From NCBI GenBank assembly GCA_041559835.1, contig JBFFCO010000001.1:1-24461 (forward strand): a stretch of 24,461 nt of DNA, in the 5' to 3' direction. The notes under the pieces were generated by a model. That model ran no database searches. It saw nothing but the letters and a program-made list of their open reading frames with translations, and had not been told where the DNA came from. Below are positions 11,818 to 17,517 of this stretch, one piece after another (the stretch's first letter is position 1; each line of letters starts with the position of its first letter). Source of the stretch: Minisyncoccia bacterium. Lineage in GTDB: Bacteria; Patescibacteriota; Minisyncoccia; UBA6257; JAAZHW01. The position numbers and the translations under genes are program-made.

Positions 11818-13644
11818 CTACTCATATCCTTTTGCTTGGAGATTGAATAATCGGGCATATGTCTTATTCGCCTTAATGAGTTCTGGATGACTTCCCAATT
11901 CCGATAATCTCCCCTTCTCAATAACTGCAATCCTATTTGCCCTCCTCACGGTGGAAAAACGATGGGATATCAAAATAACCGTCCTGTCTTTTGGCAATGA
12001 CTCCAATTTCTTAAATATCTTCTCCTCTGCCTCGGCATCAATTGATGATGTCGGCTCATCTAAAATCAAAACCTGTGGGTCGCGATAAAATGTCCTCGCT
12101 AATGCCAATTTTTGCCATTGCCCAATTGACGGCTCAATTCCACCCTTGAATCTCTTACCCAACATCTGCTCATATCTATCCTCCCACTCTTCAATAAATA
12201 TATCTGCCTCACTTGCTTTGGCGGCCATCTTAATTTTCTCAATCTTGCTTTTCTTATCAGTCCTTCCAACAGAAATTGCCTCCCTCACAACAAGATGATA
12301 TCTGTCATAATCTTGAAAAAGAACCCCCATTATTTTATACCAACTCCCCAAATCTATATCCTTCAAATCATTTCCATCAATTAAGATTTTGCCCTCATCG
12401 GGATCATAAAAACGACAAAGTAATTTAACAAATGTTGTTTTTCCCGAACCATTAATTCCAACGAGGGCAATCTTCTCTCCCGGAGCAATCCTAATAGAAA
12501 AATCTTTAAGCACAAATCTTTCCGTCCCCGGATATTTAAAATTAACATTTTCAAAAACTATTTCCGGAGTTTCCTTGCTTGATAAAACTATTCCCTTTTT
12601 TGGCCTTTCCACTACTGGCTTAATATCTAAAAATTCAAAAAAATCATTAACAAATAATGCATCCTCATATTGTTTACCGAGGGATCCAAATAATCCCATA
12701 AATGAACTCCTTAAATTCCCCAGTGAAGAAATAATAAATGTTAATGTTCCAACTAATATTAATCCATTAGCCGCCCCATAAACAAACCATGCCACCGTAA
12801 AGCCCATTGACAGAGCCGATAGAATAAAGGCAATTGATTTTTGCTTCAATCTTTTTTTCTCAGCTTTTTTCTCTTCATTTTGGAATTCTATAAAAAGATC
12901 TCTGATTATTGAAAGAAAGTACTTTATATTTTGAAATAATTTTAATTCAGTCAAAGATGATATTCCAAAGAAATGTTGGCGAAAATTATAAAATTTTCTT
13001 TTTGTTTCTGCCTTCGCTCCTTGAATTGCCCAGGTTTGATAACCATATTTTGATGAAATAATAAATTCCGGGATAGAGAAAACCAAAATTATAATCAATA
13101 TCCACCATTCATAAGAAATAATTATTATGCTCGCGAAAATTACCCCAATAATATCCCTAAATATATCAAACTGCCTCACGAAAGAATTATTTATCATATA
13201 TGTCCCTCTATCTGATATTTTATTAAATAAGTCATTCATTTTGGGATCTTCGTGGATGGCGATATCAATATCTCCTCTCTTTTTCAATGTTAAAATTTCA
13301 AATTTTTCACTTAGGTAAAAATATAAAAATCTTTCAAAATACATTTGAAGTGTGAAAAATATTGACGGTAGCCATGTGGAGACAATTAAGGCGGATAAGT
13401 AAATGATGGTCCCTGATGATATTCCTGCTCCGCCTACCAATACTAATTCATCAATCAAAAGCCCTCTGAAAAAAGCGATTAAGAATGGTGATATTGATAT
13501 TCCGAAGTAAATAAAGAATATGCCAATAATTTGACCTTTCTTTTGTCTCCAAATCATTTTTGTGATTCGGATATTATTTTTTAGAAACTGAGATATTATT
13601 TTCCACGATATCTCCTGTTTCCCTTGTTCATCATCAATATTCAT
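11818..13644 (-). CDS. ABC exporter, fused permease and ATP-binding domains
   Basis: Several N-terminal TM helices, Walker A GINGSGKTT, signature-like PSIGQWQ, Walker B ILDEPT, ISHR switch. Confidence 0.93.
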   Translation of the reverse strand: MNIDDEQGKQEISWKIISQFLKNNIRITKMIWRQKKGQIIGIFFIYFGISISPFLIAFFRGLLIDELVLVGGAGISSGTIIYLSALIVSTWLPSIFFTLQMYFERFLYFYLSEKFEILTLKKRGDIDIAIHEDPKMNDLFNKISDRGTYMINNSFVRQFDIFRDIIGVIFASIIIISYEWWILIIILVFSIPEFIISSKYGYQTWAIQGAKAETKRKFYNFRQHFFGISSLTELKLFQNIKYFLSIIRDLFIEFQNEEKKAEKKRLKQKSIAFILSALSMGFTVAWFVYGAANGLILVGTLTFIISSLGNLRSSFMGLFGSLGKQYEDALFVNDFFEFLDIKPVVERPKKGIVLSSKETPEIVFENVNFKYPGTERFVLKDFSIRIAPGEKIALVGINGSGKTTFVKLLCRFYDPDEGKILIDGNDLKDIDLGSWYKIMGVLFQDYDRYHLVVREAISVGRTDKKSKIEKIKMAAKASEADIFIEEWEDRYEQMLGKRFKGGIEPSIGQWQKLALARTFYRDPQVLILDEPTSSIDAEAEEKIFKKLESLPKDRTVILISHRFSTVRRANRIAVIEKGRLSELGSHPELIKANKTYARLFNLQAKGYE

Positions 13645-13669
13645 ATGTTTTGCTTGTGGATAATTTTAT

Positions 13670-13697
13670 TTGACTTTTACCGAGCGGTCGGTATAAT
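13670..13697 (+). promoter_or_regulatory. Sigma70 promoter convergent on the NYN gene, with a palindromic operator-like site in its spacer
   Basis: TTGACT (13670-13675)-16 nt-TATAAT (13692-13697); TACCGA-GCGG-TCGGTA at 13678-13693. Confidence 0.65.
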
Positions 13698-13701
13698 ACA
13701 A

Positions 13702-14598
13702 TTAATCGCGCTCAATGGATTCGTCCATTGAGATACTCATGGACATGGAAGATTCTTCTTCCACGTCCATTTTTTCTAATTCCTTTCTTAAATTATCAAC
13801 AGAACAAGCATAAAAAAGACTACCCCTTATCTTGTTATACTCTTTCCCCTTACACCCAGAACCAAAAACTAAAACTACTTTCTTGCCTTTTTCAATTAGA
13901 TATTCAGCTAAAGCCGAATAATCTCCATCTCCGCTAAAAAGCAAAAGAGTTTCATAATCATCCAAAAAATTAAAAGCATCTCTTGTTATTTCTACATCAA
14001 AATCACATTTTCTAATAGGACAGGGTTCTTTTAATGATTTTTGCAATCCGTCAATATTAAAGTTTAATCCACTCAATTCAGAGTCTAAATTCTCAACAAA
14101 CTGATAAATTTGATTATAAATATTCATATTCTTTCTTGATATTAGATAATATTTCTTTTCTTCTCCATTTTCGTCAACAGAAGACTCCTCTCTTTCTATC
14201 ATCCCGTTTTTTACCTTGTTATTAAATTCATATAATTTATTTGAGATTTCAGAATTTGTTTTTGTGATCCCATCTAACATATTAAATAATTTTTTTATTA
14301 TTTTTCTAAAATGATTCTGCTCCTTTAAATATACGGGCATCCATTTTACTTCCTTAAAAATTGGGCTATATCCAATTTTCTCAATATCCATTCTAAAATT
14401 TTTTGATTTTTTATTTTTGATATCCTCCCCATAATAAAATCTTTTATCAATAATCCTTGGGTATCTGCTCAAAAAAGAAAATAATTTTTTAGGACAAACT
14501 TCCCACTTTAATTTCTTTCTCCAACCATAAACATTAGCCCAATCAATCAGGGCTAATGTCTCCTTTTTTATCTTCAATTTGAATTTCTTTTTCTGCAT
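13702..14598 (-). CDS. NYN (LabA/DUF88, PIN-like) domain putative RNase with a ~110-aa helical insertion
   Basis: ALIDWANVY, RFYYG, RKCDFDVEI, LFSGDGDYSALAEYL...GKKV: the acidic catalytic set of NYN/PIN-like folds. Confidence 0.85.
   Translation of the reverse strand: MQKKKFKLKIKKETLALIDWANVYGWRKKLKWEVCPKKLFSFLSRYPRIIDKRFYYGEDIKNKKSKNFRMDIEKIGYSPIFKEVKWMPVYLKEQNHFRKIIKKLFNMLDGITKTNSEISNKLYEFNNKVKNGMIEREESSVDENGEEKKYYLISRKNMNIYNQIYQFVENLDSELSGLNFNIDGLQKSLKEPCPIRKCDFDVEITRDAFNFLDDYETLLLFSGDGDYSALAEYLIEKGKKVVLVFGSGCKGKEYNKIRGSLFYACSVDNLRKELEKMDVEEESSMSMSISMDESIERD
13704..13775 (+). ncRNA. Putative ~72-nt small RNA antisense to the 3' end of the NYN gene
   Basis: Follows the promoter. Hairpin CTCAATGGA-TTCG-TCCATTGAG (13711-13732), then a 13-bp interrupted hairpin (13739-13770) followed by a T-run to 13775. 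There is no expression evidence. Confidence 0.45.
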
Positions 14599-14599
14599 A

Positions 14600-14857
14600 T
14601 TAAATTTCTATTGGGTATCTTATATCATATAATTTTTCTGTGATTTCTATATCGCTAATTCTATCAAGAGAGAATCTCCTTATTCCATTTTTATTTTGAT
14701 CCCAAGCGAAAAGACCAATCTCGCCATCATCGTGGCTAAAACTATATGGCTCAATATATCGCCAACCCTCACTTGTCCCATCTTTTTCAAGATAAATAAT
14801 TTTCAAAACTTTTCTTTCTTGGGCTGATTTTTTAATTATTTCAATTATATTTTCCAT
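14600..14857 (-). CDS. Stand-alone WYL-domain protein (85 aa, no HTH)
   Basis: LKIIY...WRYIEPYSF...LFAWD...IRRFSLDRISDI matches the WYL pattern Y..R.vePy..l.a...R.FrldRI. The ATG is 7 nt after the leuS stop. Confidence 0.8.
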   Translation of the reverse strand: MENIIEIIKKSAQERKVLKIIYLEKDGTSEGWRYIEPYSFSHDDGEIGLFAWDQNKNGIRRFSLDRISDIEITEKLYDIRYPIEI

Positions 14858-14864
14858 AAAATTA

Positions 14865-17279
14865 TTATCCAACAACGATATTTATTAGTTTGTCTTTGAT
14901 GAATATTATTTTTTTGATTTTTTTGTCAGAAATTAACTTCTTAATCTTGCCATCCTCAAAAGCCAATTTTTTTGCTTCATCTTCGCTGATACCAATAGGA
15001 GTAGGCGATTTTGAGCGGACTTTCCCATTGACTTGAATTACCAAATCAAAATTTTTTCTTGAAATGATCTTCTCACTATACTTTGGCCACTTTTCCAAAT
15101 GAATAGATTTCTTATTTCCCATTGCTTGCCATAATTCCTCAGCCATATGAGGGGCAAGAGGGGAGAGGATTCTTAGGAAATTCTCTAAATCAATTTTTTT
15201 GAATTTTCCTTCAACTTTTTGCCAAGAATTTAAACATTCCATAAGAGAGCTAATTGCAGTATTAAATTCTAAATTCTCAATATCTTCTCCTATTTTTTTA
15301 ATTGACAAATGGAGGGATTTTTTTATTTCTTCTTCATCTTTTTTGCTTATTGGCTTTTGCCCTTCTTGAATTTGCTCTTGATAGAAATTCCAAATTCTAT
15401 TCAAAAACCTGCTAATTCCATTTAATCCTTGTGGATTCCATGAACCACCCTGACTAAATGGACCAATAAATCCAAAATACATTCTTATTGAATCAGCCCC
15501 ACTTTTTTTGACTTCCTCGTCTGGGTCTATCACATTACCCTTTGATTTTGACATTTTTTGATTGTCGGGACCAAGTATCATTCCGTGAGCTCTCCTTGCC
15601 AAAAATGGCTCATCAAAATCCAAATAGCCCATATAATTAAGGGCTTTAATTATGAATCGAGAATAAATAAGATGCATTGTGTTATGCTCTGACCCGCCGA
15701 CATAAAGAGGGATGGGCATCCATTTTTTTATTTTTTTATTATCAGCAAATTTATTTTTGTTTTTAGGGTCGGCATATCTTAAGAAATACCATGATGAATC
15801 TACGAATGTATCCATCGTGTCGGTTTCTCTTTCTGCTGGCTCATTGCAATTAGGACATTTTATATTCTTCCAATTTTCTGCTCTATCTAATGGTGATTTT
15901 CCTTCATCTGTGGGTAGATAGTTTTTCAAATCAGGCAATTTAATTGGCAAATTCTTTTCTTTTTCCGGAAGCCAACCGCATTTTGAACAAAAAATCATAG
16001 GAATAGGAGTCCCCCAATATCTTTGCCTTGATATTATCCAATCTCTTAGGCGATAGTCAGTTGATTTTTTGCCGGATATAAATAATGAAATTTTTTCCAT
16101 CGCTATTTTATTTTCTAATCCAGAAAAACTGCCCGAATTTATTAATTGCCCTTCTCCGAGAAATGGCTTATTTCTTGGCAATTCTTCATCTTTTGGTTGA
16201 ATGACTGGGATTATTTCTAATCCAAATTTTTTGGCGAAATCCCAATCTCTTTGATCATGAGCAGGCACGGCCATGATTGCCCCTGTCCCATATGAAGAAA
16301 GGACATAGTCAGCTATCCAAATAGGTATTTTTTTTCTATTTGCTGGATTTATTGCATATGAGCCAGTGAATATTCCAGTTTTGTTGTTTATCTCTTGCTG
16401 CCTTTCTAAATCGGTTTTTCTTTTTGCTTCTTGGATATACTTTTTTATTGCTTGCCTTCTTCCATCGCTTGTTATTTTTTCTACCATTGGGTGTTCGGGC
16501 GATAAGACCAAATAAGTGGCTCCGAATATTGTGTCAGCCCTTGTTGTGAATACTTCAATTTTATCATTTATATTTTCAACTGAAAAATTTATCAAAAATC
16601 CATCTGATTTTCCAATCCAATTTCTTTGGGCTATTTTTGCTGGACGAGGCCAATCTAATTGATTTACTCCTTCAAAAAGTTCATCAGCGAATTTTGTTAT
16701 TTTCATCATCCACTGCTCTATATTTCTTTGCTCCACTCTTTCTCCGCATCTTTCACAGCAACCATTTACCACCTGCTCATTTGCGAGAACCGTTTTATCC
16801 TTTGGGCACCAGTTTGCTTTTGTTTTATCTCTATAAACTAATCCATTCTCATACATTTTTAAGAAAATCCATTGATTCCATTTATAGTATTGTGGATTTA
16901 TTGTTTGGACTTCTCTATTCCAATCAAATGTTGCCCCAATTCTTTTGAGTTGCTCTTTCATATATGAAATATTTTTTTTCGTCCAGTCTGATGGGTGGAG
17001 ATTATTTTTAATAGCGGCATTTTCAGCGGGCAATCCAAAGGCATCGAATCCAATAGGATATGAAACATTTTTCCCAGTCATTCTTAAGTATCTTGCTAAA
17101 ATGTCTGACAATGAATAAGTATACCAGTGTCCGACATGGAGGTTGCCTGATGAGTAGGGAAATTCAACTAATAACATAAAGTTTTTTTTGCCCTTGACTT
17201 CGTCTTTTGCACTATTTATTTTTATTTTTTCCCAGTGCTTTTGCCACTTTTTTTCAATTTTTGATGGATTATATTTCAT
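14865..17279 (-). CDS. leuS: Leucine--tRNA ligase
   Basis: MKYNPSKIEKKWQ start, PYSSGNLHVGH (HIGH), an editing domain with GTGAIMAVPAHDQRD, SRQRYWGTPIP, KMSKSKGN. Confidence 0.98.
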   Translation of the reverse strand: MKYNPSKIEKKWQKHWEKIKINSAKDEVKGKKNFMLLVEFPYSSGNLHVGHWYTYSLSDILARYLRMTGKNVSYPIGFDAFGLPAENAAIKNNLHPSDWTKKNISYMKEQLKRIGATFDWNREVQTINPQYYKWNQWIFLKMYENGLVYRDKTKANWCPKDKTVLANEQVVNGCCERCGERVEQRNIEQWMMKITKFADELFEGVNQLDWPRPAKIAQRNWIGKSDGFLINFSVENINDKIEVFTTRADTIFGATYLVLSPEHPMVEKITSDGRRQAIKKYIQEAKRKTDLERQQEINNKTGIFTGSYAINPANRKKIPIWIADYVLSSYGTGAIMAVPAHDQRDWDFAKKFGLEIIPVIQPKDEELPRNKPFLGEGQLINSGSFSGLENKIAMEKISLFISGKKSTDYRLRDWIISRQRYWGTPIPMIFCSKCGWLPEKEKNLPIKLPDLKNYLPTDEGKSPLDRAENWKNIKCPNCNEPAERETDTMDTFVDSSWYFLRYADPKNKNKFADNKKIKKWMPIPLYVGGSEHNTMHLIYSRFIIKALNYMGYLDFDEPFLARRAHGMILGPDNQKMSKSKGNVIDPDEEVKKSGADSIRMYFGFIGPFSQGGSWNPQGLNGISRFLNRIWNFYQEQIQEGQKPISKKDEEEIKKSLHLSIKKIGEDIENLEFNTAISSLMECLNSWQKVEGKFKKIDLENFLRILSPLAPHMAEELWQAMGNKKSIHLEKWPKYSEKIISRKNFDLVIQVNGKVRSKSPTPIGISEDEAKKLAFEDGKIKKLISDKKIKKIIFIKDKLINIVVG

Positions 17280-17368
17280 ATTATTGTTTTGTTTTTTAAT
17301 TCTAGATTGCGAAATATTTTTTAATAATCTTATTTTTTTCCTTTCTACTGCTTCAGCATTTCTATTCC

Positions 17369-17517
17369 TGTCACCCCTGTCCGCCAGAGGTGGCACATCC
17401 GCCTCAGGCGGGCGGATAATACTCCGGCAGCCTGCCCGCCTATGGCGGAGGGTCTAAAAACCATGGCAAGCAAGTGGTAATAGCGAGGCAGAGATTCCCG
17501 CCTTCGCGGGAATGACA
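17369..17517. repeat. Inverted doublet of TGTC-tagged palindromes; the left copy is interrupted by CCGCC-N3-GGCGG modules
   Basis: TGTCACCCCTG[insert]AGGGTCTAAAAACCATGGCAA...AGATTCCCGCCTTCGCGGGAATGACA. The flanks are collinear with the intact doublet at 20683-20766. Confidence 0.8.

Follow-up and report, generated by a model that had tools for sequence, protein, structure and literature searches.

Introduction

The small RNAs of the Bacillus subtilis pairs txpA/RatA and bsrG/SR4, which are type I toxin–antitoxin systems, are convergent with the toxin gene and overlap its 3′ end. Ribonucleases of another kind, PrrC in the EcoprrI locus and RloC, are latent enzymes embedded in restriction-modification loci. 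In type III systems the antitoxin consists of tandem RNA repeats that are processed by the toxin (PMC8860590). Here we analyse a locus that resembles each of these in some respects. It lies in a 24,461-nucleotide (nt) stretch of DNA (referred to as the window), which corresponds to contig C1 in an assembly of 138 contigs and 760 kb from a member of the Patescibacteria with a genome of about 32% G+C, and it consists of a gene for a LabA-like NYN nuclease on the minus strand and a predicted small-RNA gene on the plus strand that runs into the 3′ end of the nuclease gene. From sequence comparison we are highly confident that there is a real RNA gene at 13704–13775, belonging to a family that is linked to NYN genes, and it may restrain the nuclease. 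The starting point was an earlier reading of the window made from its sequence alone (the original prediction), which proposed an RNA antitoxin and supposed the pairing to be undescribed; full-text literature searches have indeed returned no account of an NYN-plus-RNA or a WYL–NYN module, and no Rfam family corresponds to the RNA.

The arrangement of the NYN unit is that of type I systems, a convergent small RNA with its own strong promoter and terminator that reaches into the 3′ end of its presumed target gene, and ribonuclease III (RNase III), which that mechanism needs, was found by gene search to be encoded in the window's genome. By its geometry the RNA is a cis-encoded antisense RNA. It differs from type I in that the partner is a nuclease of 200–330 amino acids (298 here) and not a small hydrophobic membrane peptide, in that the RNA is only 35–74 nt long and has invariant single-stranded motifs beyond anything that antisense pairing would need, and in that the pair is spread phylum-wide as a cassette. 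With type III systems (ToxIN, CptIN, TenpIN and AbiQ) it shares an endoribonuclease-type protein accompanied by a short structured RNA of ~36–70 nt, an RNA that is seemingly recognised by sequence and shape, and a mobile, defence-linked context. However, the NYN loci have a single RNA unit and no tandem repeat array, the RNA gene is downstream and convergent at every locus whereas the type III RNA lies upstream on the same strand with a leaky terminator, and the protein has the NYN/LabA fold, not that of ToxN/AbiQ. As the presumed toxin is no peptide, the RNA forms no array and its gene is not upstream, the module would work like types I and III but be a member of neither.

A predicted RNA gene antisense to the end of the NYN gene

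The features of the RNA gene and of the part of the NYN gene that it overlaps are as follows.

13702–14598, minus strand: NYN (LabA-like) nuclease gene, protein P0001, 298 amino acids, PF01936
13670–13697, plus strand: small-RNA promoter, TTGACT-16-TATAAT, 11/12 matches
~13704–13775, plus strand: predicted small RNA of ~72 nt (fold and covariance model R1)
13705–13711, plus strand: 5′ single-stranded motif, AUCGCGC in the window and AUCACGC in the family
13711–13732, plus strand: hairpin 1, the core helix of the family, with perfect 9-bp arms (13711–13719/13724–13732) and a UUCG loop
13733–13736, plus strand: 3′ flank AUAC (AUAY in the family), conserved in the family
13739–13775, plus strand: hairpin 2 and U-run, an intrinsic terminator of the two-hairpin class (terminator scan; inverted repeat I2)
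13705–13770, minus strand: non-conserved NYN tail, residues 277–298, reading through the RNA gene
13678–13693, no strand: GC-rich palindrome TACCGA-GCGG-TCGGTA (inverted repeat I1), with 6-bp arms and a GCGG loop, filling the promoter spacer

The original prediction had described a TTGACT-16-TATAAT promoter pointing into the NYN gene, a start at about 13704 coinciding with the NYN stop codon, and a 9-bp UUCG hairpin, a 13-bp hairpin and a U-run that are all on the plus strand, and every one of these elements was recovered at the place given for it. The promoter is housed in the 57-nt gap between the NYN gene and the ABC transporter gene and is the top-scoring site within 12500–15000; the predicted RNA start, seven bases past the −10 element, is the final base of the NYN stop codon (plus-strand TTA, 13702–13704). 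It should be noted that promoter-like sites with at least 11/12 matches occur 142 times genome-wide compared with 49–63 times (about 56) in shuffled sequence; a promoter match is by itself weak evidence and the case rests on the comparative data. The 14-nt arms of hairpin 2 (13739–13752/13757–13770) contain one A.C mismatch, leaving 13 pairs, and are followed by T6 and then CT. Folding of 13704–13780 (77 nt) gave −31.0 kcal/mol (z = −6.4), a stability reached by none of 200 shuffles. The whole of the RNA is complementary to the last 22 NYN codons plus the stop codon.

Other explanations of the same bases were examined. No protein reading on the plus strand was found to be conserved, as the original prediction had it: a 32-codon ATG frame (13715–13813) and a 69-codon TTG frame (13728–13937) were considered and rejected because both traverse the terminator and because the region evolves by compensatory changes in the stem and not by codon. 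A dispersed repeat (of the repetitive extragenic palindrome or miniature inverted-repeat transposable element type) was ruled out, as the RNA model has one match in the genome and only a 26-nt promoter-upstream stretch recurs, on contig C95. Tandem repeats were looked for within 13500–14000 and none was found. The palindrome in the promoter spacer occurs once in the genome and is not seen in orthologous promoters; an operator and a very small insertion are both possible explanations for it. When Rfam 15 was searched with the window the only matches at gathering score were tRNAs, and an E-value scan of 13600–13850 gave a top match of 17.7 bits against a gathering score of 41.2, so that no family was assigned.

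A covarying RNA family linked to NYN genes

For comparison we used 127 loci carrying NYN relatives, 47 from species-representative genomes and 80 from metagenomes (one metagenome scan contained ~214 relatives); two of the 80 metagenome loci are truncated by a contig edge, leaving 78 that could be assessed. A small-RNA unit antisense to NYN was present in 42 of the 47 genome loci and in all 78 assessable metagenome loci, these totals being made up of matches to covariance model R1 (37/47 genome and 73/80 metagenome loci) and 10 variant loci recognised by eye. Every full-length R1 match was antisense to NYN and immediately behind the NYN gene, with one match per locus. The model has a single match in the window's genome (13702–13740; E = 1.5e-7, 47.8 bits). 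Of 151 genomes sampled evenly across the phylum, the only two that carry the NYN orthologue, the window's own and G063, are also the only two with the RNA, which lies next to NYN in both. The five genome loci without the RNA all belong to a separate, basic-tailed NYN subfamily that is probably a housekeeping paralogue. These loci (L072, L074, L075, L077 and L078) come from Peribacteria/Gracilibacteria-type genomes, encode an NYN protein with a basic C-terminal tail and have no WYL gene; one copy, inspected by eye, reads on into a miaB-like gene.

The original prediction had suggested that the 3′ flanks of NYN homologues be searched for a conserved reverse promoter and covarying hairpins, and this search found both. 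The unit shared by the loci reads, in order, TTGAC(T/A), a spacer of ~17 nt, an extended −10 element TGnTAnnAT, 6–7 nt, (A)AUCACGC, a hairpin, AUAY and a terminator. In 37 of 44 loci TTGAC and the extended −10 stand 6–7 nt ahead of the conserved RNA start, and this spacing holds where they lie inside the NYN coding tail as well. Hairpin 1 has 9 bp in most loci; a second hairpin with a U-run is present in about one-third of the orthologous loci and elsewhere the U-run follows hairpin 1 directly, the predicted RNAs of the rest of the family being 35–74 nt long. In the seed alignment (A2, 20 sequences) 100% of cells in the stem are paired and eight of the nine pairs have changed on both sides; the covariation score was reached by none of 500 shuffles, and when the partner column was shifted by one as a control, pairing fell to 51–57%. 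The larger model-fitted alignment (A3, 39 sequences) has 96.4% paired cells and 80 double-change cells.

Several features agree on the strand. The strand antisense to NYN folds better in 36 of the 44 predicted RNAs, by a mean margin of 3.9 kcal/mol, and carries 55 G.U pairs compared with 28 on the other strand. Among 77 distinct RNAs, 46 have a stable loop on this strand (37 GNRA and 9 UUCG) and none has one on the other. As the fold stability, G.U pairs, loops, promoter and U-run all point the same way, the RNA strand is taken to be the one antisense to NYN. The window copy is an exception in the family with respect to hairpin 2, for which the NYN-sense strand, having a G.U pair in place of the A.C mismatch, folds slightly better.

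The interior of the stem has been replaced many times across the family. On its 5′ side the single-stranded A-U-C-A-C-G and the first C of the stem are each kept in 74–77 of the 77 distinct RNAs, the window having one of only two RNAs with G at the fourth position of the motif, and the bases that follow the stem are A in 77, U in 72 and A in 70 of the 77.

The NYN protein and its C-terminal tail

The NYN protein matches PF01936 with 52.9 bits (cut-off 24.2, E = 7.3e-14), and its active-site residues D19, N22, D199, D201, D224 and D226 are invariant among 19 aligned sequences (alignment A1). The fold is PIN-like, and the closest structure in the PDB is 2qip (E = 6.8e-7, target template-modelling score 0.75), which is VPA0982, an uncharacterised LabA-like protein. 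The family thus has the fold and the catalytic aspartates of LabA-like NYN proteins, but differs from them in the ~100-residue helical insert that it carries in most lineages and in its dedicated RNA gene, a partner unreported for LabA-like proteins. No model in PADLOC or NCBIfam matched NYN, and the WYL protein gave only generic WYL matches in PADLOC.

The original prediction regarded the end of the NYN protein as dictated by the hairpins, and the homologues bear this out. The closest (55–62% identity) end at ..KK, one codon ahead of hairpin 2, and the 22-residue tail of the window's protein has no counterpart in close homologues (A1); residues 281–298 of it have an AlphaFold predicted local distance difference test score below 50. 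More distant homologues have another tail, with the sequence NIPxDFSxGRD, which is the reverse-complement reading of the RNA hairpin and its flanks. This was considered as a conserved protein motif and ruled out, since the RNA is just as well kept at loci whose NYN frame ends short of it. With the stop codon counted as part of the NYN frame, 40 of 44 loci show an overlap with the predicted 3′ end of the RNA (−23 to +137 nt across the loci): in roughly half of the 44 only the stop codon falls in the U-run, and in 12, the window among them, the frame spans the entire RNA. Because the tail is absent from close homologues and the overlap is so variable, the constraint on this sequence is attributed to the nucleic acid and not to the protein.

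The WYL–NYN–RNA cassette and its surroundings

In addition to the NYN and RNA genes, the following features make up the cassette and its neighbours.

~13669–14859, no strand: WYL–NYN–small-RNA cassette (approximate extent), absent from sister genome G001
14600–14857, minus strand: stand-alone WYL-domain gene, 85 amino acids from ATG, PF13280 (E = 2.8e-12)
14865–17396, minus strand: leuS
11818–13644, minus strand: ABC transporter gene

The WYL gene is 1 nt upstream of the NYN gene in the window and immediately precedes NYN in 26 of the 28 loci L033–L060 (52–72% identity) and in L061 (37% identity), whereas leuS and the ABC gene are not conserved as neighbours of the cassette. In the same-genus sister genome G001 leuS is 95–97% identical and the glycosyltransferase–ABC block 93% identical, but similarity breaks at window position 14860 (the end of leuS) and at 13651/13668 (the start of the ABC gene and the box ahead of the promoter), and the ~1.2 kb between, from the small-RNA promoter through WYL, is in the window's genome and not in G001. 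On these comparisons the leuS/ABC site is a variable slot for defence-type genes with alternative occupants, and the WYL–NYN–RNA unit is, as judged from its distribution, a mobile cassette in most lineages. A search of IMG/VR viral contigs gave distant NYN domains only and no cassette. Behind leuS, G001 has genes for an AAA_21 ATPase and an RloB-like protein (L124 459–2250, contig C17) and before the ABC gene it has a RhuM-family gene (L125 504–1502).

Type III restriction-modification genes (Mod or Res) were found in the fetched flanks of 41 of the 127 loci, and in 28 of them mod is upstream and res downstream on the NYN strand. The closest relative (P0002, 62% identity) is in such a locus, with the order mod, a gene of 194 amino acids, WYL, NYN, RNA and res. 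The 194-amino-acid gene between mod and WYL (L131 1569–2153; also L132 and L133) has no Pfam match, and no counterpart was found in other loci save a fragment in L147. A predicted ribonuclease cassette between Type III mod and res recalls PrrC and RloC, as does the AAA_21 and RloB pair that holds the same slot in the sister genome. The likeness is partial, in that the latency of PrrC depends on restriction-modification proteins and not on RNA, the ABC-ATPase domain fused to an anticodon-nuclease domain that marks PrrC/RloC-like enzymes is lacking (NYN was the one domain identified in the protein), and the window copy sits behind leuS, outside any restriction-modification operon, the nearest of which is ~9 kb away. 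The two cassette proteins have no promoter of their own and are probably expressed by read-through from host genes, likewise inside restriction-modification operons. Upstream of WYL–NYN the sole promoter-like site is CTGACA-16-AATATT (9/12 matches; 14902–14929, minus strand), within the 3′ end of leuS.

Two further observations concern which parts of the cassette persist. The loci of Peregrinibacteria keep the RNA together with an NYN protein of 198 amino acids that lacks the helical insert, and have no WYL gene; as the RNA is kept there with a short NYN and without WYL, NYN is the constant partner of the RNA. Elsewhere it is the NYN gene that is damaged: it has an in-frame TAA at three genome loci (L053, L057 and L059) and a frameshift at two (L060 and L079), with the RNA and its promoter intact in all five, and three metagenome loci were flagged as possibly disrupted. 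Broken NYN genes beside an intact RNA offer modest support for a cost of carrying NYN. In L057 WYL and the N-terminus of NYN are gone as well, yet this locus has the best RNA model score.

How the RNA may act

The reading that we favour, although we would put it at slightly less than an even chance, is that the RNA is the dedicated partner of NYN in a mobile, defence-like cassette and restrains it as an antitoxin would, by protein binding with an antisense layer in addition. A near-consensus promoter would give rise to a 72-nt RNA with a 7-nt 5′ tail, a tetraloop hairpin, an AUA flank and a U-run terminator. In the main route that we prefer, NYN itself would bind the folded RNA sequence-specifically, the RNA being a pseudo-substrate or inhibitor; as a second layer the RNA would pair with the 3′ end of the NYN mRNA, giving a duplex to be cut by RNase III, or the converging polymerases would collide. 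Strict linkage, mobility, the restriction-modification context and the decayed NYN copies suggest a toxin- or defence-like nuclease with an RNA controller. As the flanks are conserved beyond the needs of antisense pairing something must read the RNA, and it is the invariant flanks together with the tetraloops that favour direct recognition by NYN, just as the universal convergent overlap favours the antisense layer. Transcription of the RNA, harm by unrestrained NYN and the dominance of one route are all inferred from sequence, and an antitoxin that silences a toxic ribonuclease, the role given to the RNA in the original prediction, is likewise a presumed one. A search for sequencing runs turned up DNA runs and no RNA run.

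A number of points weigh against this interpretation. NYN fits no PADLOC defence model. The invariance of the flanks was measured on matches to a model built from those very motifs, and the loci are related to one another so that the counts overstate the independent support. Common descent of a compact cassette, with no need for antisense pairing, could account for the conserved convergent layout. The window copy, moreover, departs from the family pattern in having G for A in the 5′ motif, the A.C mismatch in hairpin 2 and the GC-rich palindrome in the spacer.

If the RNA acted purely in cis, pairing with the 3′ end of the NYN mRNA and bringing about RNase III cleavage and decay as in type I systems, with no protein reader, then the convergence of all ~120 loci would be expected, along with overlap of the NYN frame and the RNA 3′ end in 40/44, the complementarity of the whole window RNA to the last 22 codons and stop, a genome that encodes RNase III and the lack of an intrinsic NYN terminator ahead of the RNA gene. 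We nevertheless think it unlikely that pairing is the whole story: pairing sets no sequence constraint, yet AUCACGC and AUA are kept in 70–77 of the 77 RNAs and stable tetraloops are favoured; about half of the loci have no more than 10 nt of coding overlap, and four have none; and, whereas NYN is a soluble enzyme of 200–330 amino acids, type I toxins are usually small hydrophobic peptides (PMC6563280). A protein reader of the opposite sign has also to be considered, in which NYN and the RNA form a ribonucleoprotein and the RNA assists the enzyme as a cofactor, scaffold, specificity element or infection sensor. Strict linkage to NYN and flanks whose invariance implies a specific RNA–protein contact are what such a particle would produce, and the WYL protein of the cassette belongs to a class of ligand-binding domain often tied to defence regulation (PMC4012209). 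As the 5′ tail is constant across the family, however, it cannot be a programmable guide, no conserved second site complementary to it (GCGTGAT) was found in the WYL–NYN operon, and a broken NYN gene beside an intact RNA is a better fit to a costly enzyme lost and an antidote retained, so that we judge a positive role to be quite improbable. That there is no RNA gene at all, with a promoter match that is due to chance and hairpins that serve as a terminator or act at the DNA level (in recombination of the cassette or as its operator, for example), would be in line with a chance rate of 11/12 sites that is ~40% of the observed genome-wide rate, with the marginally greater stability of the window's hairpin 2 on the NYN-sense strand and with a cassette boundary near the −35 element. 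We consider this very improbable, given that promoter position and spacing are held in 37/44 loci even within coding sequence, that the U-run, G.U pairs and GNRA/UUCG loops are specific to the strand antisense to NYN, and that the hairpin is ~35 nt inside the cassette, away from the junction.

The favoured reading, an RNA that restrains its own NYN, bears on organisms in which little of this kind has been described. Genomes of the Patescibacteria are tiny, and hardly any of their small RNAs or of their toxin–antitoxin and defence biology has been characterised; a strongly conserved family of covarying small RNAs that goes with a single nuclease family is a rare concrete handle in them. An RNA that neutralised NYN would represent a design of RNA antitoxin outside types I and III, and bacterial LabA-like NYN proteins would gain their first functional context. 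That the cassette so often sits between mod and res points to defence in layers, with a latent ribonuclease standing behind restriction, in organisms that are themselves episymbionts. As the cassette is only ~1.2 kb it is directly testable in Escherichia coli.

Other NYN paralogues in the same genome

Four other NYN paralogues are encoded in the window's genome and three of them face a convergent promoter–hairpin–U-run unit of their own at the 3′ end.

L214 351–448, contig C16: paralogue unit with promoter TTGACT-16-TATACT
L215 772–668, contig C46, minus strand: paralogue unit with promoter TTGACA-16-TAGAAT and a TGTGGATAA box (see below) ahead of it
L216 312–390, contig C24: paralogue unit with a perfect 12/12 promoter, TTGACA-16-TATAAT, and a 12-bp terminator hairpin

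The RNAs predicted from these units are ~45–70 nt long and have a short 5′ tail, one hairpin and a U-run; two of them have ..ACG right before the stem, as in the main family, and none is matched by model R1. NYN proteins with dedicated hairpin RNAs may then form an undescribed, Patescibacteria-wide class of conflict module, in which a single convergent RNA is read by its own NYN and the nuclease is kept latent, often as a back-up weapon in Type III restriction-modification operons and with several orthogonal pairs per 0.76-Mb genome; we put this generalisation forward with considerable doubt.

The promoter-upstream box

One further feature is found ahead of the small-RNA promoter.

13655–13663, plus strand: TGTGGATAA box, DnaA-box-like, 6 nt upstream of the −35 element

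This sequence is the reverse complement of the DnaA-box consensus TTATCCACA. It occurs 35 times genome-wide compared with 9.7 expected, 28 of the 35 copies being outside open reading frames of at least 90 amino acids and at least 20 being 4–10 nt from a TTGAC or TTGAT −35 element, in both orientations, and it also adjoins the small-RNA promoter in many orthologous loci of other lineages. In these bacteria it may serve promoters generally as an upstream element or be the site of a regulator. The box, the −35 element and 4 nt more form a 26-nt exact repeat shared between the window (13654–13679) and contig C95 (39–64, L002), where TATAAT again follows at 16 nt and the contig stops 39 nt later, and similar stretches of ~30 nt are present in the sister genome G001 (C2 and C6).

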